Below are positions 36,664-63,000 of a stretch of DNA of 64,000 nt, in pieces. The stretch lies in IMG/VR virus record IMGVR_UViG_3300027808_000024; one strand, 5' to 3'. The DNA comes from an uncultured virus (IMG/VR IMGVR_UViG_3300027808_000024) (Duplodnaviria > Heunggongvirae > Uroviricota > Caudoviricetes). Positions within the stretch are counted from its first letter, which is position 1. Each line of letters begins with the position of its first letter. The translations under genes were made by a program, and so were the position numbers. Below the pieces are notes generated by a model. It was given only the letters and a program-made list of their open reading frames with translations. It did no database searches and was not told where the DNA came from.

Positions 36664-36790
36664 TTAGATTAATGTTTAAATCTTTAATTTGTATTGCAAA
36701 AAATCACAATTATGTTGATTTGGGCAAATGTCCATTTACTGGCAATAACTATAAAATGTGTACAAGGTGTCAAGAAATGGTAACAAAATA

Positions 36791-37288
36791 ATGCAAACAT
36801 TTTTACCATCATCAAATTTTGCAAGGTGTGCAGAATTGCTTGATAACAAAAGACTAAACAAACAAATTTTAGAGGGCTATCAGATTCTTAATGTAAATTC
36901 TGGCATGTCAAAAACTGGTGGTTGGCGTAATCATCCAGCAGTTTTGATGTGGAAAAATCATGAGGGGCATTTATTTTATTACATTTCTGAGATGGTCAAA
37001 GAGGCAAAACTTCGAGGAATAAATACAACAGGTAATGAATCAAATATAAATATGCTAATGGGCAAGGTTGGAGATAGCTGGAATTACGATTCACCTTCTT
37101 GGATGCTTGACAATAACAAACTTATGCGTGTAATTACAACACATAGGGCAAATTTATTTAAAAAAGATCCTTTATATTATGCTAGGTTTCAAAGTTCTAT
37201 GAATAGTCCTTGGAATAACCCTTGCTGTCCAGATCGCAAAACACCGTGTCAATACTACTGGGTAACTCATGAAAGTAGAGTACAATAG
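36791..37288 (+). CDS. Pyrimidine-dimer DNA glycosylase (DenV/MSMEG_6728-like)
   Basis: MQTFLP..LDNKRLNKQILE..WRNHPAVLMW..HRANL.KKDP.YY. Confidence 0.85.
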   Translation: MQTFLPSSNFARCAELLDNKRLNKQILEGYQILNVNSGMSKTGGWRNHPAVLMWKNHEGHLFYYISEMVKEAKLRGINTTGNESNINMLMGKVGDSWNYDSPSWMLDNNKLMRVITTHRANLFKKDPLYYARFQSSMNSPWNNPCCPDRKTPCQYYWVTHESRVQ

Positions 37289-38495: not shown

Positions 38496-38534
38496 AAAGA
38501 AAGCGGGCTTAGAAATAGGCCCGCTTTTTATTTT
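38496..38534. terminator. Bidirectional terminator at convergence of the two arms
   Basis: AAAGCGGGC...GCCCGCTTT flanked by A and T runs. Confidence 0.85.
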
Positions 38535-39577: not shown

Positions 39578-40335
39578 TCTTTATACCCCCAGGCTTGATC
39601 ATCTGAAGTAAATTTACGTGTACCTTTGCGTCCATCTAGGTGGTAGGATCGTTTGATATTGCCCTCTGGGTGATATATCCAAAGTTTATGAATGTTCCAA
39701 CCCTCATCGCTGAAACTGTTGTAAGGAAATGAATCGTCTTGAATTTTTCCATGAAATCTATCTTCTATAAAAGATTTTTCTTGGCAGAATGGCAGAACAA
39801 CATTTTTATAATAATCTTTTTTAGATAGGTGTGGTCTTTGACTCCATTGTGCAGTTTTCATAAAACCATCTTCTAACTCAATCATCAAGTGTTTATGGGG
39901 ATTTGGAATTGTAGCCTCAAAGTGAAAACGAATAGTATTTGCTTTACCATATTCAAGCATATCTAAACACTTTTGCCAATCAATTGGTAAGTCTGGTGTT
40001 AGTGGAGCATCCCCTTCAACATAAAGAAGAGCAGATGTTTTAACTTCATCGATTGTTCTAAACATCATTGTGGTTTGATGACAGTGCTCCTCAAAAATAA
40101 AAGGTAATACATTTTTGTATTCATGTAAACATTTCCATAATATGCGATTTTTATATTCATCATAATCTTTCTTACGATGTTGTTGTTCTTCTCTAAGACC
40201 ATCAATCTGCATAATAATTTCATTATCTGGAAAATGAACACGAACGTCTTTAATTGTTTGCTCTATCATCTCTGTGCTTGGATGATCTGGAATCACAGAG
40301 GTGGCTAGGATAATAGTTACATCATTAATGTTCAT
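39574..40335 (-). CDS. Putative GT-A glycosyltransferase
   Basis: VTIILATS..LLYVEGD; cluster context. Confidence 0.55.
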   Translation of the reverse strand: MNINDVTIILATSVIPDHPSTEMIEQTIKDVRVHFPDNEIIMQIDGLREEQQHRKKDYDEYKNRILWKCLHEYKNVLPFIFEEHCHQTTMMFRTIDEVKTSALLYVEGDAPLTPDLPIDWQKCLDMLEYGKANTIRFHFEATIPNPHKHLMIELEDGFMKTAQWSQRPHLSKKDYYKNVVLPFCQEKSFIEDRFHGKIQDDSFPYNSFSDEGWNIHKLWIYHPEGNIKRSYHLDGRKGTRKFTSDDQAWGYKE

Positions 40336-41182
40336 TTAAATGTCTCATTATCTTAAAAGAAAAATCTCTTTTATATTTTAACCACCAGCATACGGCTCTG
40401 TGAAGATTTGCTGGATAATCATTCATTAGTTTTTCAAAAATGTTAGGCAATTCATTCCAGTCGTAAGTTAACTCTATTGGAACATTTTTGCCATAAACAT
40501 AATCGTAAAAATTTATTTCTCTGCCCTTCGGATCTTTACGATCTCCTATTGGTAAGGTCAACATTTCTATTGCCTCAAAAAACCTAAATGAATCTATTAC
40601 TTGTGCACCAGATGGGGATGGAGCAACTTTTGCGCTTGCCAGTTTGCGATAGTACTCTTGTGGTGGATCCCCCTGTGCAAAGCCCTCTGTAGGGCAATAT
40701 AGGGCGTTTTTGACTGCAGACATGGCCTTGGCTAACTCTTGCCTACGCTGATGAGTTATTTGTCCACCAAAATAAATATCATATTCTTTAATAGGATAAT
40801 TAGGAAGATTATTTTTAAGGTGCTGAGGAACTCCAATAAAAAATCTATTGTATTTTTCATGTTTTGGGTGAGGGTATTGAATCCAAATACTTATATTAGG
40901 ATGCTTAATTGCATCAACATTAAACAAACCTTGCTCATCTCCAGTTATAAATAATACAACACGATTAAGGTTTGCTAGTTCTTTGTTTATTTGTTCTTCA
41001 CTACCTGCATTTCCCTGGCCTGGTATTACAACAAAAGCTCTATCATCTTTAGGAATGCAGGTAACTAAAATTTCTTCTACACGGTTTCTATTGAATGCTT
41101 CTTTAAGCAAGCCGTAATCCCATTTGCCATTAGCAGAATCTAGTGGATCTGTAGAAAAAATATATACTTTAGATTGATTCAT
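40325..41182 (-). CDS. Putative glycosyltransferase (exostosin/GT47-like)
   Basis: YFGGQ..RR..APSPSG..SFRFFEAIE..LPI. Confidence 0.65.
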   Translation of the reverse strand: MNQSKVYIFSTDPLDSANGKWDYGLLKEAFNRNRVEEILVTCIPKDDRAFVVIPGQGNAGSEEQINKELANLNRVVLFITGDEQGLFNVDAIKHPNISIWIQYPHPKHEKYNRFFIGVPQHLKNNLPNYPIKEYDIYFGGQITHQRRQELAKAMSAVKNALYCPTEGFAQGDPPQEYYRKLASAKVAPSPSGAQVIDSFRFFEAIEMLTLPIGDRKDPKGREINFYDYVYGKNVPIELTYDWNELPNIFEKLMNDYPANLHRAVCWWLKYKRDFSFKIMRHLNEH

Positions 41183-41882
41183 AAAATAAATGAACCTCAT
41201 GCTGATAGTCTAAAATTATTTCAGTATATCCTAATCCCTTGATCCATTGTCTAAGATTATATAAAGATTCATCCCATTGCTGTAACATAAACTCAGGGTG
41301 TCCAGATAGCCAGATCTTTGGTTTGTACTCTCTAAGCACCTTCTCTGCACCTCCTAGCACCCTCCATTCACTACCCTCTACGTCCAATGAAATAGCGGTA
41401 GGTGGCTTAATGCCATGATCATACACACAAGAATCTATAGTAATTTGACCATAGGCATCTCCTTCAAGGTATAGTTCTTTAAATCCATGTGCTGCCTCAA
41501 TTACATCATTAACTTCTGGAGGCCATTCATTATAATAAATTCTTGCAAGATCATTTATTTTATCAGAAGCAAACCCAGGAATACATACCATAGGAAGTTC
41601 TAGGTTGTTTGCAGTCCATGTTGCAGGAAAGTGCGACCAAACTTTAGGATTTGGCTCAAACAACACCACCTCTGCTCCCCACATTTGACACAGCGCTGGA
41701 AACTCTCCTTCTTCAGCACCAACGTAGTAAACAACATCTCCAGTACCAATGTTCTCAGACATATGCTTTAGTCTTGGTTTTTCCCAACCGTGTGGTTGAT
41801 ACCAGTCTGGTCTATCAGCACGATGCTTTGGTAGTGTTATTTCAAATTCCCCGTTAATAGTAGCCTTAATCATTTCAGTCAT
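41169..41882 (-). CDS. FkbM-family methyltransferase
   Basis: YYVGAEEG, FEPNP, SLDVEGSEWRVLGGA. Confidence 0.8.
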   Translation of the reverse strand: MTEMIKATINGEFEITLPKHRADRPDWYQPHGWEKPRLKHMSENIGTGDVVYYVGAEEGEFPALCQMWGAEVVLFEPNPKVWSHFPATWTANNLELPMVCIPGFASDKINDLARIYYNEWPPEVNDVIEAAHGFKELYLEGDAYGQITIDSCVYDHGIKPPTAISLDVEGSEWRVLGGAEKVLREYKPKIWLSGHPEFMLQQWDESLYNLRQWIKGLGYTEIILDYQHEVHLFYESI

Positions 41883-42762
41883 TTTGTATCCATTCCATTA
41901 ATGATACCTTTGGTATCCATCCAGTTAAATCTTTAAACTTGGCATTAGACGCAAGAGTTTCTTGCACTTCACCAATTCTTGGCGGGATAAATTTAATATC
42001 ATTTGAAATCATATTAGCAATATCAAGTATAGCGTAGTTGCTTCCATACCCAATGTTATATACCTCACCAAATCCATTTTCAACTTCAGATGCAAGTATG
42101 TTTGCTTCTATTACGTCTGATATATGAGTAAAATCTCTACGCTGAGATCCATTACCAACTACTGTTAGTGGTTTTGACTCATGATATTGTTTTAAGAATA
42201 GTCCTATTACTGGGGCATACTGTCCTTTTAATGGTTGTCTATCTCCATAAACATTAAAATATCTAAGAGATATAGTCTTTAATCCGTAAAGGTTATAATA
42301 AACTCTTGCAAGGTTTTCACCAAAAACTTTAGCAGCAGAGTATGGAGTTAACGGATCAGGCGATTGGGTTTCTTGGTTTGGAAGCAAAGCCTTTTTACCA
42401 TAAGAAGAAGATGTGCTTGAATAGATTAGCCTATCTACCTTATTAACCCTACAAAGTTCAAGAACATTTGCTGTTCCTACTGCGTTTGATTGAATAGATT
42501 TTTTAGGATTTAATATTGCTGGCTGTATTCTTGCATCAGATGCTACGTGAAATACGCAGTCAACATCTTTAAAAAGTGATGCAATTAAGTCATAGTCACA
42601 AATATCATACTTATAGTTTTGTGCCTTATCATTCCAATAGAACTGCTCATGACACTCTGCAGACTCATCATCAATACAAACAACGTCGTGACCAAGACTA
42701 ATTAACTTATCAACAAGGTTTGAACCAATAAAACCAGCACCACCAGTTACTAAATATCTCAT
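41875..42762 (-). CDS. NAD-dependent sugar epimerase/dehydratase
   Basis: TGGAGFIGS, YSAAK, RYFNVYG, RDFTHI. Confidence 0.92.
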   Translation of the reverse strand: MRYLVTGGAGFIGSNLVDKLISLGHDVVCIDDESAECHEQFYWNDKAQNYKYDICDYDLIASLFKDVDCVFHVASDARIQPAILNPKKSIQSNAVGTANVLELCRVNKVDRLIYSSTSSSYGKKALLPNQETQSPDPLTPYSAAKVFGENLARVYYNLYGLKTISLRYFNVYGDRQPLKGQYAPVIGLFLKQYHESKPLTVVGNGSQRRDFTHISDVIEANILASEVENGFGEVYNIGYGSNYAILDIANMISNDIKFIPPRIGEVQETLASNAKFKDLTGWIPKVSLMEWIQND

Positions 42763-43718
42763 TGTATGTTTAATGTTTCTAGTATTGTTGCCCACCTGTG
42801 TACATATGTGTGCTCTTGTTTAGTTCTTTCATGCCCAGCAAGTCTTATACTCTCTCTTGAAAGACCATCTACTAGATACTTATCTATCTTGGTTTTTAGA
42901 TCTTCAAGATTACCATGTTCATAAAATACAATCTCATTGCCATCTTCAAAGTATTCTTCAAGTCCTGTAATGCGAGGGTAGATAGTAAAACCACCACGAC
43001 CAGTACTTTCAAACAATCTATCACTAGTGTAGTAAGGATAGTTAAAGTTAATATTTAAACTATCACCTATTGCTATTTTGCTTCTTGCATAAATCCGATT
43101 TAAAGCATCTCCACGTACAGTTCCAGTATCTCCATCGCCACCAACATGACAAAACCTACTGCCGTAAGTGTCTTTTAAAAAATCTATTAGTTGTGGACGG
43201 AATGGATACTCTTTGTGATATCTTTTACTTCCCACGAAAATAACATCATGATCGTAATACTTTTTATTATAATCTGAATGAAGATAGCACTCTTTGTCAT
43301 AAACTCCAGCAGGAACAAAATGACCTTTTACTTTTGTATTTTTGTTAAACCAATCAGTCATTAGCTTGTCTGTAGCAAAGAAATGTTCTATGTTTGTGTA
43401 AAAACCATCATCTTTTAAGTCTTTTTGACGCTCAATACCAAACCAAAGATCAAGATGATAAGTCATGGTTGGTATGTTAATCATCTTCAATTCTTGTAAA
43501 ACTTCAATCATGTCAAAGTGTCCAGGGGTTTTCCAGCCATGGGTGTGTACCCATATGAATAAATCTGATTCTGATGCCTGGTAAAATATCTCTTTACCTG
43601 TTGCTTGACGCTCTTGTAATTTTATTACAGTATGACCCAGAGACTCCAAAGACGCTGCGTGATGATTCTCACTAGAATATGGAACTTCAAAGTTACCAAG
43701 AAAAACAATTTTTGCCAA
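42759..43718 (-). CDS. Glycosyltransferase (CgeB/YkvP-like)
   Basis: TTG start with GGAGG; DVIFVGS..SDRLFE..GGF..HTYVHR. Confidence 0.8.
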   Translation of the reverse strand: MAKIVFLGNFEVPYSSENHHAASLESLGHTVIKLQERQATGKEIFYQASESDLFIWVHTHGWKTPGHFDMIEVLQELKMINIPTMTYHLDLWFGIERQKDLKDDGFYTNIEHFFATDKLMTDWFNKNTKVKGHFVPAGVYDKECYLHSDYNKKYYDHDVIFVGSKRYHKEYPFRPQLIDFLKDTYGSRFCHVGGDGDTGTVRGDALNRIYARSKIAIGDSLNINFNYPYYTSDRLFESTGRGGFTIYPRITGLEEYFEDGNEIVFYEHGNLEDLKTKIDKYLVDGLSRESIRLAGHERTKQEHTYVHRWATILETLNIQ

Positions 43719-43772
43719 TTTTATCCTCCACTGTAAATAATTATAGCATGATATACTTGTAATAGGGGTAAA

Positions 43773-44465
43773 ATGAATTTTATATATATATGTCGTGGCG
43801 GGGAAAACCAAGAACTTAGGTACTCTGTTAGGACAGTTGTTAATAGTTTTCCAGACTCAGAGATCTGGGTAGTCGGCGGTATACCAAATTGGTACAAAGG
43901 TAAAAGTATAAGCATAGAGCAAAATGCTAGTAAATATAATAACGCTATAGAAAACCTAAAGGCTATCGTAAAGTCTACAGAAACCCCAGAAGAGTTTGTT
44001 TTAATGAATGATGACTTCTTCATTGTAGACAAAATAAATTCAATAAAACATTATCACGAGGGACCCCTCCTTGATAAAATTGAAAAATACAGGGATTTAA
44101 AAATGGATCCTAGTTACGTTCAAAAACTTGGACAGACCTATGCCAGATTACAAAGAATGGGCATGGAAGAGCCTGTAAGTTATGAAACTCATACCCCAAT
44201 GATTATGCTTAAAGATAGGCTTAAAGAGGTTTTACAATATTGTCCTACTAGCCTTTGGAGATCTCTGTATGGCAACATACATCATGTTGGTGGAGAACAA
44301 ATAAAAGATGTAAAGGTTTACTATAGAGATAGGTTTGCAAAAATATCAAATGACTATACTAATTCTGATTTCCCTTTGATGTCTACAGACGATGAATCAT
44401 TTTTAATAATAAGAGATAGTTTATTAAAAAATAAGTTTAACAAGAAAAGTAAATACGAGAAATAA
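43773..44465 (+). CDS. Stealth-like putative sugar-phosphate transferase
   Basis: ELRYSVRTV and FVLMNDDFFI resemble Stealth CR2 motifs. Confidence 0.55.
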   Translation: MNFIYICRGGENQELRYSVRTVVNSFPDSEIWVVGGIPNWYKGKSISIEQNASKYNNAIENLKAIVKSTETPEEFVLMNDDFFIVDKINSIKHYHEGPLLDKIEKYRDLKMDPSYVQKLGQTYARLQRMGMEEPVSYETHTPMIMLKDRLKEVLQYCPTSLWRSLYGNIHHVGGEQIKDVKVYYRDRFAKISNDYTNSDFPLMSTDDESFLIIRDSLLKNKFNKKSKYEK

Positions 44466-44467
44466 AA

Positions 44468-45154
44468 CTATCTCATAAAATGATAATCGCCATCTGGGCC
44501 ATTGTCAGAAAACATCCCCATGTTTTTAAATCCTTGTGATGAAAGATAATCAATGATAACTTCTTTTTCAGGAGATCCAATATTATATTCTACATCTCTT
44601 AGCTCTACTATAAGGTGTTCACAAGTTTTTAATGATTTAGTTGCACCCACAAGGACATCTAGTTCTGCGCCCTGAACATCAATTTTAATAAAGTCTGGCT
44701 CTTTAAACATTTCATATTTGACGGTATCATCTAAAGTAATGGTTGTCATTTCAACTATACTGTTATCATCAAACAAATAATCTGCTGCTGGACTATATTT
44801 TGAATTTTCTTTGTAATATGAATTGCCAGCAAAGTTATCATTGTTCTGATAAAACTTTATATTTTTGTCAGAAGCATTACTTAAGGCACCAATGCTGTAT
44901 TGCAATCCGCTTTCAACATAAAGACTTTCAAATGCATCTGTTGCATCAAACAAAACTATTTCACTCTCAGGCCAGATATCTTGCGCTCTTTGTGTCCAGT
45001 GTAAAACACATGCTCCAATATCATAAATTACTTTTGGGTTGAAGTTGTAATCATATTTTAATTTAAGCAGATATTTAAAATGTTTATCTGGTAGGTTTCT
45101 ATAGTCGCTAACCTTTTTAATATTATCTAAAATATTTTTATTATATTGTTTCAT
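44468..45154 (-). CDS. FkbM-family methyltransferase
   Basis: IYDIGAC, IKIDVQGAELDVLVGA. Confidence 0.82.
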   Translation of the reverse strand: MKQYNKNILDNIKKVSDYRNLPDKHFKYLLKLKYDYNFNPKVIYDIGACVLHWTQRAQDIWPESEIVLFDATDAFESLYVESGLQYSIGALSNASDKNIKFYQNNDNFAGNSYYKENSKYSPAADYLFDDNSIVEMTTITLDDTVKYEMFKEPDFIKIDVQGAELDVLVGATKSLKTCEHLIVELRDVEYNIGSPEKEVIIDYLSSQGFKNMGMFSDNGPDGDYHFMR

Positions 45155-45728
45155 TGTTAATATCATACTTTCCAATTTTATTTAGCCACTGTGCCATAGC
45201 CCATGCCTCACGAAACCTTATGTTTGCCATAGTCATACCATACTCTCTACACAACCTTTCAAAATCTTTATAGGTTTTTGGTTTTTTTGTAAAAAGAATC
45301 CACATCAAGGCCGACTCTGTTGTTAAAAATGTTTTGCCACCTTTTATATGAGAAGGTCTTTTAATTACGTTGCACCTTCTGCATCTCAAAGTCATGTTTT
45401 CTAAACTGTCTGCTTGATCCCCTAACACTTCTCTCGGAACTATGTGATCCGCCTGCAATTCAAGTCGTGTTCCGCAGTCAGCACATTTACCATTTTGATT
45501 CTTATGCCATTCATAAACAGCCTGCATGGTTTTTCTTGGTGGATATTTACTTTGAAAAGTTTTTTTTGATGCTATAGAGGTTCCCACTTGTGATGGATTT
45601 AAGTGTCCAAGAACTAAAGCCACAACTTCTTGCATGGTAACAAGACCCTCTGTAATTAATTCATTTAATAAATTAATCCAATCTTGTTGAGTCCATTCAC
45701 GATCACTGTCTGGAAATTTATTTTGCAT
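45141..45728 (-). CDS. HNH endonuclease
   Basis: CADCG..ADHIVP..N...CRRCNVIK. Confidence 0.85.
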   Translation of the reverse strand: MQNKFPDSDREWTQQDWINLLNELITEGLVTMQEVVALVLGHLNPSQVGTSIASKKTFQSKYPPRKTMQAVYEWHKNQNGKCADCGTRLELQADHIVPREVLGDQADSLENMTLRCRRCNVIKRPSHIKGGKTFLTTESALMWILFTKKPKTYKDFERLCREYGMTMANIRFREAWAMAQWLNKIGKYDINNETI

Positions 45729-53610: not shown

Positions 53611-54284
53611 GGGGGTCCTTTCTGTTTGTCGTAATACAATTATCCCAAAATCAGGGAATTCTGTCAATCTGTCGTAAAGTGATTTTGGTCACACCTTTCC
53701 CTCTACCCTCGTGGATTGGCATTCCATGCACTTAGGATCTATAGGATCGTAGTACTCTTTATAGCCAACATCCTCCAACTCACCTGCGGCAGTATATGTG
53801 GCCTCGTTATAGGAATTCTCCATGAATGAGAACCTAGTTACATTATTACAATCTAAACACTTAGGCATCTGCACCCATCTCCCATGGCTCTACTTTATAG
53901 TTTGCACATATTTGCTCAATGCAATCTTCAAGTTCGGTAAAGAATAGGCCACCTTCATTGTCGTCAAAATGACTAATCATGTTGTCAGTTATCTTGAATT
54001 CCCATACTATTTTCATTGGACATGTCCTTCTGCTAACAGACCTTCAAAGAAGTCCCATACTATTAGTAATTGTTTATAGTTTTGTTCATCCCCTTGGTTT
54101 TTGGCAGTATCAATAGCCCAAGTCAAACTATTACCAAATGCTTGTATATCTTGATATGTATAACCTAACATAATTACCCTTTCTGTGGTAAATATATTGT
54201 AGCAAATTTTGGGGAAAAAATCAAACTATCGTAAAGAATTTTAGGTAAAAATATCATGGATCCCGGGGGGATTTTAAAAAAAGT

Positions 54285-54312
54285 TGAGCAGTTTATACTC
54301 TTACTCAGGAGT
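54285..54312 (-). ncRNA. Repeated H-type pseudoknot, copy A
   Basis: ACUC-CUGAGUAA-GAGU-AUAAAC-UGCUCA. Confidence 0.65.
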
Positions 54313-54321
54313 TGAATTAGA

Positions 54322-55332
54322 TTAAACTAATTCTAAAGTATTTTTTACAATACTTAGCAGACGATTTTTTTCTGCTGTAATTGTCGCATCAAAACCAGAA
54401 GCAGCAGCAAGCAGAGATTCGTTAGAATTACCACGAGCAGACCTGTGCCAATCAAGGCGTTCAGTTAGAGCATTGAAAGCACCCCAAGCGGTATTGGCAA
54501 TCATGCCATTAAACTCGCCTGTGTAAATATCATTGATTAAATCAATTTTATTTTCCCACTTCTTTGATGAGCCTTTAGAATCTTTATCAGGCTTAGGATA
54601 AGCAGCAAGAACAATATCATTGAACTGTTGCGCTGTGATTTCTTTTTCAATCATAGCCTTAGCCATAACATCAAAAGAATCCATATAAGCATTAGCAAGA
54701 CCAAGGGCCTCACGAGCAATTTGGACTTTACCATTAGCGGTCTGTGTGTGGCGAATCTTGAAAGATTGCTTGATTTTATTCTTCTTAGAACCAAGCGCAA
54801 GATTAAGAGTGTTAGCGCATACAACACGCACTGGTGTGATACTTGCTTGAATAGCAATAGAGCCATCATGTGATGTATTGATAAGTAAATAAGTTTTTAC
54901 CTTATCTGCCACACCATTAGGGTCTAATACTGTTTCACGCTCAAGAGCAAGAGAGCCAAATACAACACGCCCTCCACGAATAGAGCCAGCGGTTTCCCAT
55001 CTGCCTCCACCATCTAGGATATTATCACCAAATGAGAATAAGTCCTCATTTTGTAAAACATGATAACGCTCACCAACAACACCTAAAATATCTGTCTGAG
55101 AGTTATTTGTAGGATTTGTCCTAACAACATACTGATATTCTTTATCTGATGATAAAGTATTTGGAATCTCAACATCAACTAATCTAACATTCCAATTATT
55201 TAGATTAGCAGCAGCAAGCATTTCTGCTGTGGTTTTTTCATCTGTGAATACTGTGCCTAGACCATGCCAAGCAGGCTCACGCAATGAAGCAAAAGAAGCA
55301 ACGCCATTTTGCGTTTCTAACTCATGTGCCAT
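54322..55332 (-). CDS. DUF932-family phage/plasmid protein
   Basis: MAHE..PAWHGLG..ETAGSIRGG..NTSHDGS..RVVCANTL..RHT. Confidence 0.85.
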   Translation of the reverse strand: MAHELETQNGVASFASLREPAWHGLGTVFTDEKTTAEMLAAANLNNWNVRLVDVEIPNTLSSDKEYQYVVRTNPTNNSQTDILGVVGERYHVLQNEDLFSFGDNILDGGGRWETAGSIRGGRVVFGSLALERETVLDPNGVADKVKTYLLINTSHDGSIAIQASITPVRVVCANTLNLALGSKKNKIKQSFKIRHTQTANGKVQIAREALGLANAYMDSFDVMAKAMIEKEITAQQFNDIVLAAYPKPDKDSKGSSKKWENKIDLINDIYTGEFNGMIANTAWGAFNALTERLDWHRSARGNSNESLLAAASGFDATITAEKNRLLSIVKNTLELV

Positions 55333-55360
55333 TTTTATTTCCTTTCTATTTGTTTAGACA

Positions 55361-55382
55361 ATCATATCAGGTGGGTCTGACA
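55361..55382 (-). promoter_or_regulatory. PafBC/RecA-NDp-type promoter
   Basis: TGTCAG-N10-TATGAT, with TTGACA just upstream. Confidence 0.6.
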
Positions 55383-55470
55383 ATGTCAATTCATACTATT
55401 AAGAATCTGGGCAAAACGGACATCGTTCTTAAACTTGACAAAAGATCTTTTTGCCCCCCGGGATTTTGGA

Positions 55471-55498
55471 GAGCAGTTTTAAGACATGCTCAGGTCTT
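55471..55498 (-). ncRNA. Repeated H-type pseudoknot, copy B
   Basis: AAGAC-CUGAGCAU-GUCUU-AAAAC-UGCUC. Confidence 0.65.
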
Positions 55499-55512
55499 GG
55501 ATAGCCCCACTA

Positions 55513-55977
55513 TCACACGTTATAGATATTATCTATCTCAACACCTACTTCTCCGTCATATGAATTTAGTTCAGCATAAACATTTAAGTCAATGTCGCTA
55601 ACCTCAAAATTAGCAACTTCATCTAACGGAACTAATATTGTTCCTGTGATTGTGGCGGTAGCCTCAAACTGAATTTCCTTAGTAGGATTAAATCCAAAGA
55701 TACTACAAATATCAGCAACGATTTCCTCTGAACCCATATCAAGGTAATCAGGTAGGCGACTTTCTAACAGACCTACTCCCTGAGTATATCTATTAAGTTC
55801 TCGTCTTTCTCTGCGGTGTTGATGTAATTCCCACTCAAGGTCGCTAACCTTTACTGTGGGATACCAATTTGTATAGTCTGTTTGGTGTGCCTCAGAATCA
55901 ATAATCTTATAGGTCACGATTTGATTTGGGTTGTAGTGGTTTGGCACTACTATTTCATTAGTTGTTTCTGTATTCAT
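55513..55977 (-). CDS. Hypothetical protein
   Basis: 154 aa; GAGG RBS. Confidence 0.6.
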   Translation of the reverse strand: MNTETTNEIVVPNHYNPNQIVTYKIIDSEAHQTDYTNWYPTVKVSDLEWELHQHRRERRELNRYTQGVGLLESRLPDYLDMGSEEIVADICSIFGFNPTKEIQFEATATITGTILVPLDEVANFEVSDIDLNVYAELNSYDGEVGVEIDNIYNV

Positions 55978-56239
55978 TTAAGAGTTCCTCTCCTACTGTA
56001 TCCATTTCTTTAATGGTATCCATCATATCGTTTAACTGTTCCTCTGTCAATAGTGCGTGGGTCACTAAGGTTGTTGTCATAGCAGAGAGCATAGCGGAAT
56101 AGTTATACATCTCTTTGATAAAACTTTCATCATCTACTTCATTTCTGATACTGACAATGTGTTTCACAATTTCCATTATCATGTCATCATGAACTGCGTC
56201 TCTTGACGCTTCTTGTAATTTAATAGCGGTTGCTATCAT
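55958..56239 (-). CDS. Hypothetical protein
   Basis: MIATAIK start after AGAAAGG. Confidence 0.6.
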   Translation of the reverse strand: MIATAIKLQEASRDAVHDDMIMEIVKHIVSIRNEVDDESFIKEMYNYSAMLSAMTTTLVTHALLTEEQLNDMMDTIKEMDTVGEELLNEYRNN

Positions 56240-56317
56240 GGGGCGTTCCTTTCTTTTGGTTATACCCAAGTCTATCAAAAATATAGGAAAAATACAAATC
56301 GTGTCTTAAACCAGCTA

Positions 56318-56333
56318 TGTGATCATTATCACA
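56318..56333. promoter_or_regulatory. CRP/GlxR-type site
   Basis: TGTGA-tcatta-TCACA. Confidence 0.6.
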
Positions 56334-56356
56334 TTTCCCGGGGGGCGCAAAAAAAA

Positions 56357-56385
56357 TAAGCAGTTTTAGTTCATGCTTAGGAACT
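56357..56385 (-). ncRNA. Repeated H-type pseudoknot, copy C
   Basis: AGUUC-CUAAGCAU-GAACU-AAAAC-UGCUUA. Confidence 0.65.
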
Positions 56386-56470
56386 GTATGCCTCGCTATA
56401 GCACTGGCAGGGACATTTGGTTGTGGCTGGGGGAATTCCGATTACACACCCGAAACCAGCCACAATTCTA

Positions 56471-56638
56471 TTAGTGTGTTTTTACCATAGCAAATCTTGT
56501 TTGATTATTTGCCAAGCGCAACATTACTTTAGTGACATTACGAGTTTGTGGGACAAACTTTTCAATGCGACCTGTAATACCTGTTTTGCTTGTTGTAAAT
56601 AAATCACCAAGTTGGTATCTGTATCCTCCAAGTGTCAT
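56471..56638 (-). CDS. 55 aa SH3/KOW-like protein (absent from ORF track)
   Basis: MTLGGYRYQLGDLFTTSKTGITGRIEKFVPQTRNVTKVMLRLANNQTRFAMVKTH; AGAAAGG RBS. Confidence 0.7.
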   Translation of the reverse strand: MTLGGYRYQLGDLFTTSKTGITGRIEKFVPQTRNVTKVMLRLANNQTRFAMVKTH

Positions 56639-56668
56639 TTACTTTTCCTTTCTGTTAGGGGTTTTTGT

Positions 56669-56698
56669 TGAGCAGTTTTAGTTGTCATACTCAGGACA
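56669..56698 (-). ncRNA. Repeated H-type pseudoknot, copy D
   Basis: UGUC-CUGAGUAU-GACA-ACUAAAAC-UGCUCA. Confidence 0.65.
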
Positions 56699-56713
56699 TT
56701 TAGCGTTTGCTAA

Positions 56714-57133
56714 TTATAGATAACGAGCGATAGCATTATAGGTGCTAGTGCTAACTACTTCCTCATCTGTCATTTTGAGAATACGAATTGCGTTCTCAAT
56801 TTCATCTACCATTTCCTTGTATTGCCACTCATTGTAAGTGTCAAAATCTTTCTGAGGTTCATCAGGTAGAACTATACTTCCACTAGGTAAGTTGAAATCT
56901 ACATTTATAGTGCCATTGTAGCGAACATTGGCAGATAAATCTGTTGCCTTGCTTATTTGAGCAAGTGCTAACTTTCCTACTTCTTTGTTGTATTTCTCTT
57001 GCGCCTTTGAGAACTTTTCCTCATTGACTTTTTGATTAGCCTTATCCTTTTGGATTTGGGCTAGTTTTGCTTCTAGAGCCTTTATGACTTTAGTTGTAGC
57101 GATTTTTACGCTAATTGCTTTTCCTCTTGACAT
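56714..57133 (-). CDS. Hypothetical protein
   Basis: AGAAAGG RBS; 139 aa. Confidence 0.65.
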   Translation of the reverse strand: MSRGKAISVKIATTKVIKALEAKLAQIQKDKANQKVNEEKFSKAQEKYNKEVGKLALAQISKATDLSANVRYNGTINVDFNLPSGSIVLPDEPQKDFDTYNEWQYKEMVDEIENAIRILKMTDEEVVSTSTYNAIARYL

Positions 57134-57219
57134 AATTACCTTTCTGTGTAATTTATTGGTGGGCTATTATTTTAGCATTTTTAGGTGGGATAGTCAATTT
57201 GGCTACCCCACCCATTTGA

Positions 57220-57384
57220 CTACTTAGATTTCCAAGTTGTCCAACGAGTTGCGCCATTTACATCAAGTTTAACGCGAACTGTGTCCTTGTTGGTTGGCAC
57301 GATTTCCTTGATAACACCTGTCACCTTAGACTTCTGTGAGGTGTAAGTGTCGCCGACCTTGTAAGTTGCTACTGCTACTGACAT
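57220..57384 (-). CDS. 54 aa SH3/KOW-like protein (absent from ORF track)
   Basis: MSVAVATYKVGDTYTSQKSKVTGVIKEIVPTNKDTVRVKLDVNGATRWTTWKSK; AAAGGAG RBS. Confidence 0.7.
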   Translation of the reverse strand: MSVAVATYKVGDTYTSQKSKVTGVIKEIVPTNKDTVRVKLDVNGATRWTTWKSK

Positions 57385-57628
57385 TGTTTCTCCTTTGTTA
57401 GTTGTTTTTTCATTACTGTATTATTATCGCATTTTTGGTATTTATTGTCAAGTCCTATACCCTAAAAATCTCATTATTTGAGATTTGTGAGGTAAGTCAC
57501 TAATTGCCCATTCCCGAAAAAACTAGCAGTAGGCATGTGACTCCTAAGATTATTAGTAATTCCACGATTCCCCTTTCTGTCCTTGATTTTATCATTTTGC
57601 GGGGGTATTGGTCAAGTCCCCCTAGATC

Positions 57629-58348
57629 CTACTTCTTCTTAGCAGAGAAAACTATATTAGCCTTGTTATCAATACATAGAGAGCAGACTACGCAAGCAGA
57701 GCCCTCTTTAGATATTAGTGGAATAGCCTTTTTATTTTCAGGGCATTTAGCTCCAGGCTTACCTATCATCTCTTTCATATCTGCCTGACCAATTGCGAAG
57801 GTATCAGCAAGGTATGCTAATTTAACTCCAGTATCTTTATTTAATTTAATAGCAATTTTTTTATTCTCGCTATCTGTGGAATAGTATAGAGATAGATTAT
57901 CAATACCCTTAAGAATATTGACCGCAGAGGCTACTCTTGTATATACCCAAAACTTTATATCAGAATTATTAAGGATGATATGCTTCCAGGCGAAGGCATA
58001 AGTATCATTGAAAAAGTCTCCGTCCCAATGGATACGAAATAATTTAGGAGCATTGCGCTTATCACAATCAGCCTTAAAATCATTTATCATATCTTGCAAT
58101 AGGTCTTCCATAGTATCGTGGTCAGCGTCTTTTAATAAATTCCAATTATGAATTAGGTTTTCTCTTACGCCTTTATATACTCTTTCAAGTTTTCCTGCGT
58201 AGCAAACACTTTCACAAACACTAGTGGCACCAGGGCACGAGTAAGCCTTGCCAGCAGGCAGTCCAAAAGTGTTGGCGATTGTTGCGGTTTTTCCATTGGG
58301 TGATACGGCATTAGCGACCTTTCTATCGTTAGAGCGTTTTAGTTTCAT
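57629..58348 (-). CDS. GP88-family (radical-SAM-like) protein
   Basis: CPGATSVCESVCYA, FRIHWDGDFF, FWVYTR, C-terminal CxxCxxC. Confidence 0.75.
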   Translation of the reverse strand: MKLKRSNDRKVANAVSPNGKTATIANTFGLPAGKAYSCPGATSVCESVCYAGKLERVYKGVRENLIHNWNLLKDADHDTMEDLLQDMINDFKADCDKRNAPKLFRIHWDGDFFNDTYAFAWKHIILNNSDIKFWVYTRVASAVNILKGIDNLSLYYSTDSENKKIAIKLNKDTGVKLAYLADTFAIGQADMKEMIGKPGAKCPENKKAIPLISKEGSACVVCSLCIDNKANIVFSAKKK

Positions 58349-58576
58349 AGGGGTCCTTTCTTACTTCCTAGAATAACATTTTTTTAATCTTTTGTCAATT
58401 TTTTATGCTTGGTTTTGCGGGAATAAATTTTCTTGTTCCTTAATGGCGTGGCAGCAGAAGACCTACGTAATTCCATTAATCTACGTAATTCTTCTCTAGG
58501 TTTTTTCCACATAAAATAATCTTATCATAAAAATATCATAAAAGCAAATCGGACAAATCGGGCGCCCCGGGGGCTT

Positions 58577-58804
58577 TTATTCTAAAATATACAATTCAAA
58601 TTTTTCATTATCAAAAATTTCAACATCTTCTTTTTCATCAAACTCATTATCAATGACAAGAGCGAACCCATCTTTAGTTGGAGTAATTGAAATAATTTTT
58701 ACAATACCAATAATGCCTAAACCAATTAGATCTCCTACTTCTAATTGGTCAGCATTAAGAATATCTACAAATCTGTAATCCATAGAAATTAGTGTATCAG
58801 ACAT
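58577..58804 (-). CDS. Hypothetical protein (small beta-barrel)
   Basis: ADQLEVGDLI motif. Confidence 0.5.
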   Translation of the reverse strand: MSDTLISMDYRFVDILNADQLEVGDLIGLGIIGIVKIISITPTKDGFALVIDNEFDEKEDVEIFDNEKFELYILE

Positions 58805-59020
58805 TTATTTACCTGATACCCTTCCGTCACGATAAAAAATCTTAGTAATCATTTTACCTGATGGCTCTGAAAAATTGTAGGTTGCGTATTCATTAGCAAA
58901 TCCCCAATCCTTTATTTTATCCCACTCGCCAACTGCGCTAATTGCGTCAGAATAACGACCAACCCAATAAGGGGCTTTATCGTTATCATAGGTTGCGGTA
59001 ATTGCGTATAAGTATTCCAT
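58805..59020 (-). CDS. Hypothetical protein
   Basis: MEYLYAI start after GAAAGGG. Confidence 0.5.
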   Translation of the reverse strand: MEYLYAITATYDNDKAPYWVGRYSDAISAVGEWDKIKDWGFANEYATYNFSEPSGKMITKIFYRDGRVSGK

Positions 59021-59021
59021 T

Positions 59022-59300
59022 TTAGTATTCCCTTTCAATAAGCCACGCATTTAGGTGGTGTTGCTCAATAATAGCCCAAGCAGGGGCGGTAGTCAAACCC
59101 TTATAGGTTATTCCTTCAGGCATAGGTATTTCTAAATCCCAAAGTCCAGCGTCATTAACTGCGTCTATGGCTTCAACGCAAGGAGCAACCATAGAGCGGG
59201 GAACGGGCGGGTAATGATTAGCAGATAGGTGAATTGCTATCTGACTTTCAATTTCAAGATTATCAGCAAGGGCTAAATCGTGAGCAAAAATACTTCCCAT
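59022..59300 (-). CDS. Hypothetical protein
   Basis: HLSANHYPPVP..IIEQHHL. Confidence 0.55.
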   Translation of the reverse strand: MGSIFAHDLALADNLEIESQIAIHLSANHYPPVPRSMVAPCVEAIDAVNDAGLWDLEIPMPEGITYKGLTTAPAWAIIEQHHLNAWLIEREY

Positions 59301-59301
59301 T

Positions 59302-59541
59302 TTAGTTAGCCTCTCTACTAGCAAAGATACTGAGATTATAGAAATCTTTAATTAGTTCAGGCTCGCTTAGCAAACCATTATCCCAAATTACATCTCCGTC
59401 ATCATCTAAGATTAGTTCATAGGGATTACACTCGCAAACCTCAAAATCAAAATCCTCGCCAATTCCCCAATACAAATTACCTTTACCCTCGCAAGCATTA
59501 CAATTGCGAATTGTGTTTAACGCGTATTCTACTTTATCCAT
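59302..59541 (-). CDS. Small CxxCxGxG Zn-finger protein
   Basis: CNACEGKG..CEC; AGAAAGA RBS. Confidence 0.55.
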   Translation of the reverse strand: MDKVEYALNTIRNCNACEGKGNLYWGIGEDFDFEVCECNPYELILDDDGDVIWDNGLLSEPELIKDFYNLSIFASREAN

Positions 59542-59636
59542 TTTTCTTTCCTTCTTTCTGTTTAATACTGTAAGCCTATCAGATAGGGCTGACATTTCCA
59601 AATCTGCCACGCCCTGTCCGATATGTCCGTTTTGTC

Positions 59637-60134
59637 CTACCAAGAACTCTGATAGTAGAAAGACAATTCCTCAAACTCAGGCAGATTAATTAGCCTTCTC
59701 AATTGCTTTCTAGTATCCTCAATATCTCGCCAATACCACTCATCAATATCTGTTCCACCAAAGAAAAATCCTTCTGTTGGCGGTAGCAAATTAGGGTCCT
59801 TATTAGTTATAGCCAAAGCACAAAGTGTTTCTAATTCTCTTATCTTAGTATTGGATACATAGTATTCTCCACAATTATCCTCGCCACCTTGAATATTCTT
59901 TACAAACCAATTGTGTATCTGATTACACTTGCGCCAATAGCAGACATTTACTGACACATCTACACCATAGATACCTTCTCTATCTGCGAGGGTAGCCAAA
60001 CCAGCACTATCTACTACATTATCCCATTGTGGATAAGTAGCCTGTGAATACTTAGTATCGCTATCACGATCAAGTAAATCCCAATTTACTTTTTTAATGT
60101 GCTTTCTAGCACTCATATACATATCTAATCCCAT
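59637..60134 (-). CDS. Phage hypothetical protein
   Basis: MGLDMY..YWRK.NQIHNWF..GFFFG..YQSSW. Confidence 0.7.
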   Translation of the reverse strand: MGLDMYMSARKHIKKVNWDLLDRDSDTKYSQATYPQWDNVVDSAGLATLADREGIYGVDVSVNVCYWRKCNQIHNWFVKNIQGGEDNCGEYYVSNTKIRELETLCALAITNKDPNLLPPTEGFFFGGTDIDEWYWRDIEDTRKQLRRLINLPEFEELSFYYQSSW

Positions 60135-60425
60135 TTTACTGTTCCTTCTTTCCAAAAACATTTTCCATTATATTTAAGTTTTCCTCTGTTAGAAAACTCT
60201 GTGCGCTTCCCCATAAGCCATAAATATAGTTATCACCATATTTTTCTTTAGCTAATTTTTCAATATTAGCAATTCTTTCCATTTTTTCAATAACTGTCAT
60301 TTTAGTTATCCTTTCTTTATTTTCAGGCTTCTAGCCTATCATTTTCTACTGACAAAATCAAATTAGACACGCCCAAAAACTGTGAGAAAATTCACAAGCC
60401 CCGTAAAGTGCTACGTAATTCACAT

Positions 60426-60446
60426 TGTGGATAACCCTGTGGATAA
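60426..60446. promoter_or_regulatory. Tandem DnaA boxes
   Basis: TGTGGATAA-ccc-TGTGGATAA. Confidence 0.7.
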
Positions 60447-60658
60447 CCCCCCCGGGGCCTTGCAACTCTAACTATTTAAATTAAAGTTGCAATTTTGAAA
60501 TCAAACTTTTATTTGATTCCATTTCATTTCAGCATTTTTTTTTCGCAATTCTCTGTTTTCATTTTCTAATTTTCTAAGTGTAATTAGTCCGTGAAATGTT
60601 ATTCCAATTAAGCCAACGAGAGCAATTATTATTGCGATTACATCAGTTGTTAAAAGTG

Positions 60659-60850
60659 TCATACGGGAATTAGTCCTATCTCATCAACACCGCAAGCCTT
60701 CTCAAATCTTGCGAAGTCAAATCTATCATTGTCAGACTTGAAAAATTGTGAAAACTCCTCTACCAAATCCTCAAAAACTTGCGGGTGGATTTCCTCGCTG
60801 AAACCTTTTAGAATTTCAGCGGTTTTGACATAGTCTTTTCGTGTCATCAT
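60659..60850 (-). CDS. Hypothetical protein
   Basis: MTRKDY..DNDRFD.ARF..AC. Confidence 0.6.
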   Translation of the reverse strand: MMTRKDYVKTAEILKGFSEEIHPQVFEDLVEEFSQFFKSDNDRFDFARFEKACGVDEIGLIPV

Positions 60851-61110
60851 TAGTTAGACCCCTCATCTAATAGAATAAATGCGTGAGTTCCACCATTATT
60901 TATTTTAGTTAGTGCTATTAGCAATTCATCTTTAGTTAGAAATGAAGCGTCACCTACCAATTCGGTTAGTGCTTGAATATTTAATTCAGCAAATGCGCCA
61001 GCAGGCAGGCTCTCAATACTAGATAGAAATGGAGAGTCAGAATAAACTCTTGAAACGAATTTTACTCCGTTAGTTGTAAATGGGAAATCTTTATAGGTTG
61101 TGTTAGTCAT
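60850..61110 (-). CDS. Hypothetical protein
   Basis: AGAAAGG RBS. Confidence 0.55.
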   Translation of the reverse strand: MTNTTYKDFPFTTNGVKFVSRVYSDSPFLSSIESLPAGAFAELNIQALTELVGDASFLTKDELLIALTKINNGGTHAFILLDEGSN

Positions 61111-61238
61111 AGTTAGTTTTTACCTTTCTTGGTGTTTGTGTTATTTACTATTTTAGCGATTTTCTCTAAGTTTGTCAATTCTTGCGCCTTGCGCTGGCTC
61201 TCAATAAGAGCCTTGAATTCGTGTAGTTTCATTGGAGA

Positions 61239-61445
61239 TTACTCTCCAACTTTAACTGCTAGGGTAGCCCAATAATCTCGGGAAGCAAATCTGAAGCGAA
61301 TTGCGTAGGCTTCATAGCCCTCAGATAGATAGACATTATCTCGCTTCTCAGCGTAGTTAATTTCTCCACCCATAAATCTCCTGCTCATAGAGCGTGGATA
61401 GTAGAACTTGCCAACTAGCAAGTCTGGAATTGAGTATGATTTCAT
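61239..61445 (-). CDS. Hypothetical protein
   Basis: AGAAAGG RBS. Confidence 0.55.
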   Translation of the reverse strand: MKSYSIPDLLVGKFYYPRSMSRRFMGGEINYAEKRDNVYLSEGYEAYAIRFRFASRDYWATLAVKVGE

Positions 61446-61557
61446 TTTAAGTTATCCTTTCTAAGATACTTTCTAATAGTTCTATTATTTCATTTTTTAG
61501 CGTAAAAGTCAAATTAGACCCACGCTTGGTGAGTGTGAGGTTAATCACACCTTCCCC

Positions 61558-61755
61558 CTAGTTAGGGAGAATGTCTATTCCGTAGTATTCTACGGCTTCA
61601 ACTATGTTAGTCATACCCTTATACTCACGACAAGATACGCATACCGCGTTCCAACGATCATAAGTAGTTGAGCAGAACACGCAGATTTTATCTTGAAAAT
61701 TAAAGTTATTTTCAATTAAGTATTCTATTACTTGATTTTTATCTAGTGTAGTCAT
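61558..61755 (-). CDS. Small Zn-binding protein
   Basis: CVFC..CVSC; AGAAAGG RBS. Confidence 0.6.
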   Translation of the reverse strand: MTTLDKNQVIEYLIENNFNFQDKICVFCSTTYDRWNAVCVSCREYKGMTNIVEAVEYYGIDILPN

Positions 61756-61788
61756 TTTAAGACCTACCTTTCTTTTTAGTGTGTTAAC

Positions 61789-61860
61789 TTATTTGCTCTT
61801 ATCTTATTTGCTAGGCTCACCTTTCGGATTATTTGCTAGGCTCATTTAAGAGGCTCATTT
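61789..61860 (-). repeat. Direct repeats in 5' leader (TGAGCCTAGCAAATAA x2 plus partial copies)
   Basis: ttatttgctaggctca at 61804 and 61829; partial copies at 61789 and 61851. Confidence 0.8.
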
Positions 61861-61888
61861 AACACTATTTATTTTTTCTTATACTAGA

Positions 61889-62115
61889 ATTATAACAGGG
61901 GGGTCTGACATTTTGAGAGAACAAATCAGGATAAATCGGACATTCTGAAAAACTATTTTTGTGATAGTAGTCACAAATAAACTATGACAAATCGGACACC
62001 CCCCGGGGACCGACACGCCCGAACGCGGGGGTGGGAAAAGTGTGACCAACACCACAAAAATACTTTGCGACACGCCGTGTTTAGATTTGATTTTGTCGGT
62101 CTGCTCTGTTATACT
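61889..62115. promoter_or_regulatory. Divergent promoter hub
   Basis: Leftward TGTCAG-N10-TATAAT (61889-61910); rightward TGTCGG-N10-TATACT (62094-62115); CRP-type, GACAC and GGACA motifs between. Confidence 0.7.
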
Positions 62116-62167
62116 TCCCGTATTAGATAGTTAAAATATAACTACTAAACGAAAGGTAAAAACTAAA

Positions 62168-62320
62168 ATGATAAGCGATTTTTTTGGAAATACATTGGAC
62201 TCAGTGTCAGACTTCTTTGGAAATATTACAGACTGGGCAGATGATGCTTTAGCAAGTGGGCCATGGCCAGCATTTATTGGCGTTGCCATATGCGTGATTA
62301 TAGGTATAGCCACCCTTTAG
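62168..62320 (+). CDS. 50 aa membrane protein (absent from ORF track)
   Basis: GAAAGG RBS; SDFFGN x2 then one TM. Confidence 0.55.
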   Translation: MISDFFGNTLDSVSDFFGNITDWADDALASGPWPAFIGVAICVIIGIATL

Positions 62321-62425
62321 GGTGTGACCTAAATCACAGGGATTACCCCACAGACACCCCCCAAAATGTCAGTGGCAACAGATAGAATTACAGGTATAAC
62401 AAAAAGAAAGGTTAGGTAGCAAAAA

Positions 62426-62584
62426 ATGCTAACACTAAATTACACAGTATCTAAAGAGGATACTATACTTACAACATCAGATAGGCTGATGATAAATGAG
62501 CGTCAAATAAATGACCTTATGGATAGCCTAGTGGCTTACGGATTTACAGTAGAGGCTATGTCAGTAGCCCCTGCTACACTTTAA
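62426..62584 (+). CDS. 52 aa hypothetical protein
   Basis: AGAAAGG RBS. Confidence 0.5.
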   Translation: MLTLNYTVSKEDTILTTSDRLMINERQINDLMDSLVAYGFTVEAMSVAPATL

Positions 62585-62607
62585 GAATTAAGAAAGGATA
62601 AACTAAA

Positions 62608-62715
62608 ATGATAAACGCAATAGAAAGAATAAATTGTGATGAGTGTTATGGACACGGACTTATTTTCTACGGAGATGAGAACAACTATGACACAGAACCT
62701 TGCGAGTGTGTATGA
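62608..62715 (+). CDS. 35 aa CxxCxGxG Zn-finger peptide
   Basis: MINAIERINCDECYGHGLIFYGDENNYDTEPCECV; AGAAAGGA RBS. Confidence 0.55.
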   Translation: MINAIERINCDECYGHGLIFYGDENNYDTEPCECV

Positions 62716-62817
62716 CCTACACACTAGAGCAACAACTGCGCCTAGCGTGGATAAATAAAAATGGTAGCCCCAAAGGTTATCACCAAGCAACACAACAACA
62801 GAAAGAACAGGTGTTAA

Positions 62818-63000
62818 ATGAAAATAACGATAACTAGTATGAGTGGCAAAGAAATGAAAATGGATTTGCCTACTAAAGAAAATGTCTATTACTTTATAGA
62901 CCTATACAAAAAATCTCTAAAGAAAAATCAACGAGTAAAAATTACTTGCGATTTATTAGGTATTGACGGATATTTACAAGGCACTGCTTCTAGTAAATAA
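62818..63000 (+). CDS. Hypothetical protein
   Basis: 60 aa ORF before terminator. Confidence 0.55.
   Translation: MKITITSMSGKEMKMDLPTKENVYYFIDLYKKSLKKNQRVKITCDLLGIDGYLQGTASSK

Follow-up and report, generated by a model that had tools for sequence, protein, structure and literature searches.

Phage and prophage genes are known to be wired to the LexA protein of their hosts, which places them under negative control through LexA boxes, and bacteriophage T4 supplies both its own activator and its own anti-sigma factor for its middle promoters. Promoters of the PafBC/RecA-NDp (recA P1) type, found in Mycobacterium and other Actinobacteria, combine a hexamer containing GTC, a gap of 10 nucleotides and a TAnnnT -10 element, generally with no -35 element. 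The accessible parts of the paper that describes them (PMC8635444) give the in vivo consensus as tGTCgg(N10)tA(N3)T, which has a -26 element but lacks a -35. They also report that the helix-turn-helix of PafB reads GTC at -23 to -28 through R46 and R50, and that PafBC takes up a place between the DNA and sigma domain 4, making the -35 dispensable. Activation of PafBC occurs by binding to single-stranded DNA, according to the available portion of PMC11804915. DriD of Caulobacter and the WYL regulators of Moraxellaceae and Acinetobacter are likewise activators with a WYL domain that turn on damage genes upon single-stranded DNA; they differ in target sites, promoter geometry and phyla, and the accessible parts of their descriptions report no phage promoter arrays. 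Here we examine a stretch of 64,000 nucleotides from an uncultured Caudoviricetes virus (IMG/VR record IMGVR_UViG_3300027808_000024), hereafter the window, that carries promoter-like sites of the PafBC type. A sequence-only reading had listed six of them, ascribed to them the exact PafBC architecture and proposed that the phage may use a host DNA-damage sensor to drive its earliest transcripts.

Our search for TGTCRG-N10-TAnnnT returned seven exact matches in the window, all of them within 55361-62580 and thus in its last 9 kb. The six sites already listed were recovered as exact matches with their coordinates and strands, and one more was added at 62559-62580 (+). The architecture ascribed to them holds, since the sites match the consensus tGTCgg(N10)tA(N3)T (PMC8635444, accessible parts). 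The predicted PafBC-type promoters are as follows:

55361-55382, minus strand: TGTCAG-N10-TATGAT upstream of the DUF932 gene; exact match, overlapped by TTGACA, hence a hybrid
59573-59594, minus strand: TGTCAG-N10-TAGGCT ahead of four small genes (59541 down to 58577); missed by a sigma-70 consensus scan
60333-60354, minus strand: TGTCAG-N10-TAGGCT ahead of open reading frames (ORFs) 60300-60136 and 60134-59637; exact match
61889-61910, minus strand: TGTCAG-N10-TATAAT, leftward hub arm, with a 133-nucleotide leader to ORF 61755-61558; exact match
62094-62115, plus strand: TGTCGG-N10-TATACT, rightward hub arm, ahead of ORF 62168-62320; weak TTGATT -35
62367-62388, plus strand: TGTCAGTGGC-N6-TAGAAT ahead of ORF 62426-62584; exact match
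62559-62580, plus strand: TGTCAGTAGCCCCTGCTACACT in the 3' end of ORF 62426-62584, ahead of the 35-residue ORF 62608-62715 and of ORF 62818-63000; exact match

The number of matches clearly exceeded that expected by chance. Dinucleotide shuffling gave an expectation of 1.09 per window (standard deviation 1.03, largest 5), and none of 100 such shuffles reached seven; 200 block shuffles averaged 1.05 with at most 5, and again none reached seven. The spacing was equally specific: in a scan of gaps from N5 to N15, N10 gave seven matches, N5 gave one and every other gap gave none, which confirms the exact spacing that had been claimed. The -26 element hexamer with its invariant GTC is present at all seven sites. 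As the sequence-only reading had also stated, the sites are aimed at a downstream gene with a GAAAG-type ribosome binding site; an ATG lies 27-133 nucleotides downstream of each of the seven, preceded by GAAAGG or GAAAG. The six sites listed earlier are all intergenic, and the seventh (62559-62580) overlaps the last codons of ORF 62426-62584. Sites 61889-61910 (-) and 62094-62115 (+) point apart across 183 bp and form the divergent hub of the sequence-only reading. Five of the seven window sites fail a sigma-70 consensus scan and two pass. Site 55361-55382 has a perfect TTGACA -35 (55384-55389), 17 nucleotides upstream of its -10, and site 62094-62115 has TTGATT at the -35 position.

The arrangement is conserved in the phage family. 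The DUF932 protein has 383 relatives in IMG/VR, and the 80 best of these 383 loci (1.30 Mb) served as the family set, with the same pattern read backwards as the control. These 80 loci hold 539 motif matches, compared with 16 for the reversed control. After removal of identical loci, 78 unique ones gave 524 matches at N10 and 5-152 at the other gaps, and of the 867 TGTCAG hexamers in the family 504 belong to an N10 arrangement. The five complete relatives, 114-120 kb long, carry 47 matches (7 in the control), or 6-13 per genome, each set lying in one block of about 10 kb. The 22-mer of site 60333-60354 occurs identically in two relatives (G002 and G004). The nearest record (G001), a 24-kb fragment, has no motif match and is uninformative. 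A logo built from 439 distinct sites shows gAAW-TGTCAG-T(C/G)(C/G)c..(a/c)TGnTAnAAT with an A-rich leader behind it; directly next to the box is a weak TTGAAA-like signal, and TGn precedes the -10 at 337 of the 524 sites (64%). The strict motif precedes the DUF932 gene in 49 of 63 distinct relatives, at positions -47 to -59 relative to the ATG (about 53 nucleotides upstream). Among the other 14 upstream regions, seven keep TGTC in place with positions 5 and 6 changed, and the remaining seven have a -35-type hexamer (TTGACA, TTGACT or TTGCTT) in the position of the box. This exchange of box and -35 argues for a box that recruits polymerase, and against a free-standing operator. Promoter-class switching at this gene was seen among relatives L003-L076, and the window copy has both the box and a -35 hexamer.

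No reader of the box was found in the phage itself. Searches of the five complete relatives for WYL, HTH_PafC and Sigma70_r2 gave 0/5 in each case, and the same searches were positive in control genomes. Among the 114 window ORFs there was no match to WYL, PafC-type, sigma region-2 or box-binding/anti-sigma Pfam families, a search that small proteins of novel fold would escape. One PafB and one PafC, searched by tblastn against the window plus the 80 loci, reached no E value better than 1.8.

Candidate hosts were sought in two samples, a phylum sample of 401 Actinomycetota genomes and a class sample of 401 genomes from one class. The 401-genome tallies (WYL, WhiB, recA, rhodopsin, DUF7455) include the unpublished genomes G129, G334, G182, G156, G010, G270, G057, G097, G233, G341, G027, G091, G245, G316, G389, G436, G438, G681, G414, G449, G750, G442 and G431; none of the sites or sequences that are named singly here was taken from these genomes. 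In the class sample 52 genomes encode a rhodopsin, and 28 of these measure 1.3-1.7 Mb. This profile fits streamlined lake actinobacteria; small rhodopsin-bearing planktonic actinobacteria are plausible host lineages for the phage. WYL was present in all 33 rhodopsin-bearing small or mid-size genomes tested; 30 of them had at least two matches, for the most part separated by some 0.95 kb on a single strand, and the WYL genes mostly form a pair resembling pafB and pafC. In one such genome (G626) the pair consists of a PafB-like protein of 316 residues (WYL+WCX) and a PafC-like protein of 302 residues (HTH_PafC+WYL), followed by tatC. The PafB-like protein and the PafB chain of M. smegmatis in the RNA polymerase-PafBC structures (7p5x, 9fnd) match with an E value of 1e-40, and the former keeps both base-reading arginines (the equivalents of R46 and R50) in ERMFERDK. 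Of 28 candidate genomes, 27 have the strict motif ahead of recA, the exception (G602) having TGTCGT. In 19 of them the recA motif begins TGTCAG, most often as TGTCAGTGGCGCCTGCTACCTT, directly followed by TCGAACAGATGTTCGG, a LexA-type box. Site 62559-62580 (TGTCAGTAGCCCCTGCTACACT) shares 17 of 22 bases with the candidate-host recA promoter, and the gap positions conserved in the phage family (T, S, S, C following the box; C/A, T, G ahead of the -10) recur at candidate-host recA. The proposed check of the host for pafBC and for the motif at recA was therefore positive for plausible host lineages.

Conserved matches in G626 precede recA-recX, carD-ispDF, a LysM-nrdR-ribonucleotide reductase unit and a PD-(D/E)XK nuclease, and 25 of the 60 genome-wide matches in five candidate hosts begin TGTCRGTG. 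The rhodopsin-bearing lineages thus have a small PafBC-type damage regulon. Other genome-wide counts of the pattern in bacterial genomes did not rise above the control level (688 compared with 786 in the control, and 144 compared with 119) and cannot reveal small regulons. We also observed that in the 19 small rhodopsin-bearing genomes (L188-L207) the recA promoter pairs a PafBC box with a LexA box beginning immediately downstream of the -10, that GCGACAC(G/A)CC lies about 21 nucleotides before the recA box in candidate hosts (L188-L207), and that at the LysM-nrdR-reductase unit (L215) the PafBC box sits between two LexA boxes. This dual PafBC/LexA control at recA and LysM-nrdR resembles that of mycobacteria. 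A search of the literature on PafBC in Nanopelagicales or Planktophila found nothing.

The phage sites share with mycobacterial PafBC promoters the GTC hexamer, the 10-nucleotide gap, TAnnnT and, at most sites, the lack of a good -35 (PMC8635444, accessible parts), and this promoter type is also present at recA of the candidate host genomes. The phage sites differ in that their downstream genes are small genes of no known family and the DUF932 gene, and not genes for repair. At position 5, 95% of family sites have A, as do the recA sites in 19 candidate hosts; G stands there in the mycobacterial consensus. Further differences are the TGn before the -10 in 64% of sites, the arrays of 6-13 per genome and the lack of an attached LexA box. 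In the window no LexA box better than three mismatches was found, and the 15 three-mismatch matches compare with 13.1 expected; this suggests that only the activator arm of the host design was copied. With LexA-wired phages the lake phage would have in common the coupling of expression to host DNA-damage sensing, but here the control would be positive.

Based on these observations, we consider it probable, with moderate confidence, that the seven sites are promoters of the "sigma adaptation" type in a phage, dependent on the PafBC of the host. In this scheme, host RNA polymerase with its housekeeping sigma factor would read the -10 (TAnnnT, usually with TGn ahead), and the host heterodimer PafBC would replace the -35 contact. 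The PafB helix-turn-helix would read the GTC of TGTCAG, a hexamer that starts 16 nucleotides upstream of the first base of the -10, leaving the 10-nucleotide gap. PafBC is a constant presence in the cell, active only when bound to single-stranded DNA. The DUF932 gene, the small-gene block and both hub arms would be boosted upon host DNA damage, and the same genes would be boosted when infection yields single-stranded DNA through phage replication, recombination or host DNA breakdown. The earlier proposal that the phage uses a host DNA-damage sensor therefore stands in part. The architecture, its conservation in the family, the searches that found no phage reader and the fit of plausible hosts speak for it. 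PafBC binding, PafBC-dependent transcription, the identity of the host and the timing of expression are what we infer from the sequences.

Several observations weigh against this interpretation. Two of the seven window sites, and 95 of the 524 family sites, have a good -35 (in the family, at least five of six matches) and may not need an activator; because of their -35 hexamers, sites 55361-55382 and 62094-62115 could fire without one. The 80 loci share ancestry, so their 539 matches are not independent events. Two further conserved boxes, ATGTCCG and CGACACGCC, lie a short way ahead of many sites and might be targets of another regulator. ATGTCCG is 23-fold enriched upstream of family sites (88/435), its core TGTCCG lying mostly 31-40 nucleotides before TGTCAG in the same orientation, and CGACACGCC or its complement occurs in 267 distinct family contexts, with preferred distances before about 10% of sites. 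Arrays are absent from four cultured Streptomyces phage relatives, whose hosts have PafBC (6 matches compared with 5 in the control). These phages, BillNye, Wakanda, Faust and Bmoc (L167-L170), are the closest cultured relatives by polymerase and have 0-3 matches per 127-133 kb, which equals the control level; the arrays would accordingly have arisen within the freshwater lineage.

The host side also contributes contrary evidence. The pattern is not enriched genome-wide in five candidate hosts (60 matches compared with 55 in the control), which implies a small host regulon, visible only in the composition of the matches and in the downstream genes. WYL was found in 343 of the 401 genomes of the phylum sample and was lacking in 58, often small and low in guanine plus cytosine (GC), so that PafBC is not universal in Actinomycetota. 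The motif was upstream of recA in none of 54 WYL-lacking genomes (55 recA loci), and PafBC seems to have been lost in these lineages. Streamlined hosts without PafBC were entertained and rejected: in 45 small lower-GC genomes, 34 of them without WYL, rhodopsin was found in none and cytochrome oxidase in one, the WYL-positive G377. These organisms are thus not aerobic lake plankton and were dropped as host proxies. GC around recA is about 48-52% in the candidate genomes, compared with 36% in the phage, and neither DNA nor gene similarity links the phage to them specifically: a 20-kb phage DNA query against five candidate genomes gave a single match of 35 nucleotides. The phage DUF7455 protein is 43-51% identical over its full length to proteins of many actinobacteria (305 of 401 class genomes), and no group stands out. 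The phage WhiB was uninformative on the host, with no useful matches in the 401-genome phylum sample. A host call based on WhiB was rejected, its matches being only to phage-like contigs binned into unrelated metagenome-assembled genomes.

Among the alternatives, the one that survives best, though we regard it as unlikely, is that a phage activator of novel fold reads TGTCAG in the manner of T4 MotA/AsiA (sigma appropriation). The sites would then be middle promoters, their likeness to PafBC promoters being convergent. The geometry of T4 middle promoters is indeed the same, with a box near -30 in place of the -35, a normal -10 and a temporal class of phage genes, and the comparison is drawn by the PafBC authors themselves in the accessible parts of their paper (PMC8635444). 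Most small ORFs of the block lack a family match and could hide such a protein, and the lack of arrays in the Streptomyces phage relatives implies that the trait arose within the phage lineage. However, an arbitrary box would have to coincide with the host hexamer, with the 10-nucleotide gap and with the flanks seen at recA (T, S, S, C; CTGnTA before the -10). WYL, HTH_PafC and sigma region-2 were not found in the complete relatives, and no Pfam transcription factor matches in the block. Unlike T4, then, the phage has yielded no activator candidate, and its box equals the site of a host activator.

It is less probable still that the sites are constitutive extended -10 promoters, with TGTCAG serving in the spacer as the operator of a phage or host repressor and thus under negative control. 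The TGn found before most family -10 elements can make a -35 dispensable, TGTCAG and CTGnTA form an imperfect inverted repeat, and other conserved boxes stand nearby. The half-site CTGnTA is, however, explained by the promoter's own TGn and TA, and the box keeps a fixed distance to the -10 and a single orientation. Its replacement by a -35 hexamer at the DUF932 gene of some relatives is as expected of a polymerase-recruiting element, and the similar arrangement at host recA is of a known activator-dependent type. Very unlikely, in our view, is that the arrays act mainly as decoys, amplified copies of which would soak up PafBC and polymerase and blunt the host damage response, with gene expression secondary. 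The 6-13 sites in about 10 kb of each complete genome would multiply with the genome copies, and the phage has repair genes of its own (recA, a pyrimidine-dimer glycosylase and a Cas4-like nuclease). Every window site is nevertheless correctly oriented 27-133 nucleotides ahead of a ribosome site and start codon, the signature of use in expression. Chance or a compositional artefact, conceivable only because the pattern is short and degenerate, can be dismissed, as it is refuted by both sets of shuffles, by the reversed control in the family and by the specific spacing.

The timing of PafBC-dependent transcription deserves separate comment. The sequence-only reading had attributed the phage's earliest transcripts to these sites, a claim that we found unsupported. 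Canonical TTGACH-N16-18-TAnWWT promoters are enriched in the window (14 compared with 4.06) and interleaved with the PafBC-type sites in the same block. Because PafBC needs single-stranded DNA (PMC11804915, available portion), such canonical promoters (TTGACA-N17-TAnnnT) are at least as good candidates for immediate-early transcription. The PafBC-type sites are at least as likely to form a delayed, replication-coupled or damage-coupled class as the earliest one.

We tentatively suggest that PafBC is the phage's own "MotA", a clock or environmental sensor firing 6-16 promoters. PafBC would be switched on by single-stranded DNA that arises when the phage replicates, when the host genome is broken down or when sunlight causes damage, and the arrays may also divert PafBC from the repair genes of the host. 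Such a phage promoter class would be the first to rely on a host WYL activator and sigma adaptation, a possibility that we would not put as high as PafBC dependence itself. Full-text literature searches turned up no description of PafBC-type promoters in a phage; a 2025 article in ACS Infect Dis, which deals with PafBC and resistance to mycobacteriophages, lay outside their coverage. If PafBC does act at these sites, a globally common group of freshwater phages would time part of its programme by the host's single-stranded-DNA alarm, with a WYL activator exerting positive control where the classical route goes through LexA. Phage expression would be linked to sunlight damage and replication in the most abundant lake bacteria, and the phage family would offer hundreds of natural PafBC promoter variants for dissecting sigma adaptation.

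The genes behind the sites, and the control region between the hub arms, are listed below:

54322-55332, minus strand: DUF932 gene, 336 residues, first gene behind promoter 55361-55382 (Pfam PF06067, E value 2.4e-50)
58577-59541, minus strand: four small genes with no known family, behind promoter 59573-59594
59637-60300, minus strand: two genes (54 and about 165 residues) with no known family, behind promoter 60333-60354
61558-61755, minus strand: gene of 65 residues behind promoter 61889-61910
61911-62093: divergent control region of 183 bp between the hub arms, with AAATCGGACA repeats, CCCCGGGG and two CGACACGCC elements
62168-63000, plus strand: rightward small genes (50, 52, 35 and 60 residues) behind promoters 62094, 62367 and 62559

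Most small ORFs of this promoter block gave no match to a Pfam family. Elsewhere the window encodes DnaB, a primase, a DnaE-type polymerase, a divergent RecA, DUF932 and a GP88-family protein by Pfam and ORF analysis, and also WhiB, Hsp20, a thioredoxin, a pyrimidine-dimer glycosylase and a sugar-modification island; it has no tRNA genes. GC across the window is 35-41% (about 36% for the phage). The DnaE polymerase is 50-52% identical to those of the 127-133-kb Streptomyces phages of the Stanwilliamsviridae, and the phage is a low-GC relative of these large phages. A megablast search of 54000-63000 against named phages gave zero matches. At least half of the words of region 54300-63000 occur in 14 sequencing runs, mostly labelled freshwater metagenome, three of which may be the record's own source. 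Metatranscriptome contigs from four runs cover coding parts that include the DUF932 and GP88 genes; RNA ends are not resolvable in them and DNA carry-over is possible. Given its whiB gene, its polymerase and the freshwater runs, the phage is an uncultured low-GC freshwater phage of actinobacterial type.

A few minor features complete the description. The DNA-damage genes of the phage are a T4 endonuclease V-type pyrimidine-dimer glycosylase (36758-37288), the divergent RecA (17814-18830) and a weak match to a Cas4-like nuclease (19618-20457); such repair genes of its own fit a sunlit habitat. A probable sugar-modification module occupies 38528-45175 on the minus strand; this island encodes glycosyltransferases, two FkbM-type methyltransferases and an NAD-dependent sugar epimerase/dehydratase. 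The 133-nucleotide leader behind 61889-61910 contains direct repeats at 61781-61870 on the minus strand, two TAAATGAGCCT and two GAGCCTAGCAAATAA, recognised by eye. The second box, in the form (A)ATGTCCG(A/T)TT, stands at 55417-55422, 58550-58555, 59615-59629, 61937-61942 and 61993-61998 in the window, and in the family in L001-L080; CGACACGCC stands at 60366, 62011-62019 and 62068-62076. Finally, CCCGGG, often as CCCCGGGG, occurs seven times between 50.7 and 62.0 kb (50752, 54262, 55457, 56337, 58566, 60451 and 62002), always intergenic, compared with 2.4 expected. Its arrangement is limited to the closest relatives (L001, L002, L006 and L015) and was not seen in 26 others checked; the element could be an operator, part of a terminator or related to restriction.

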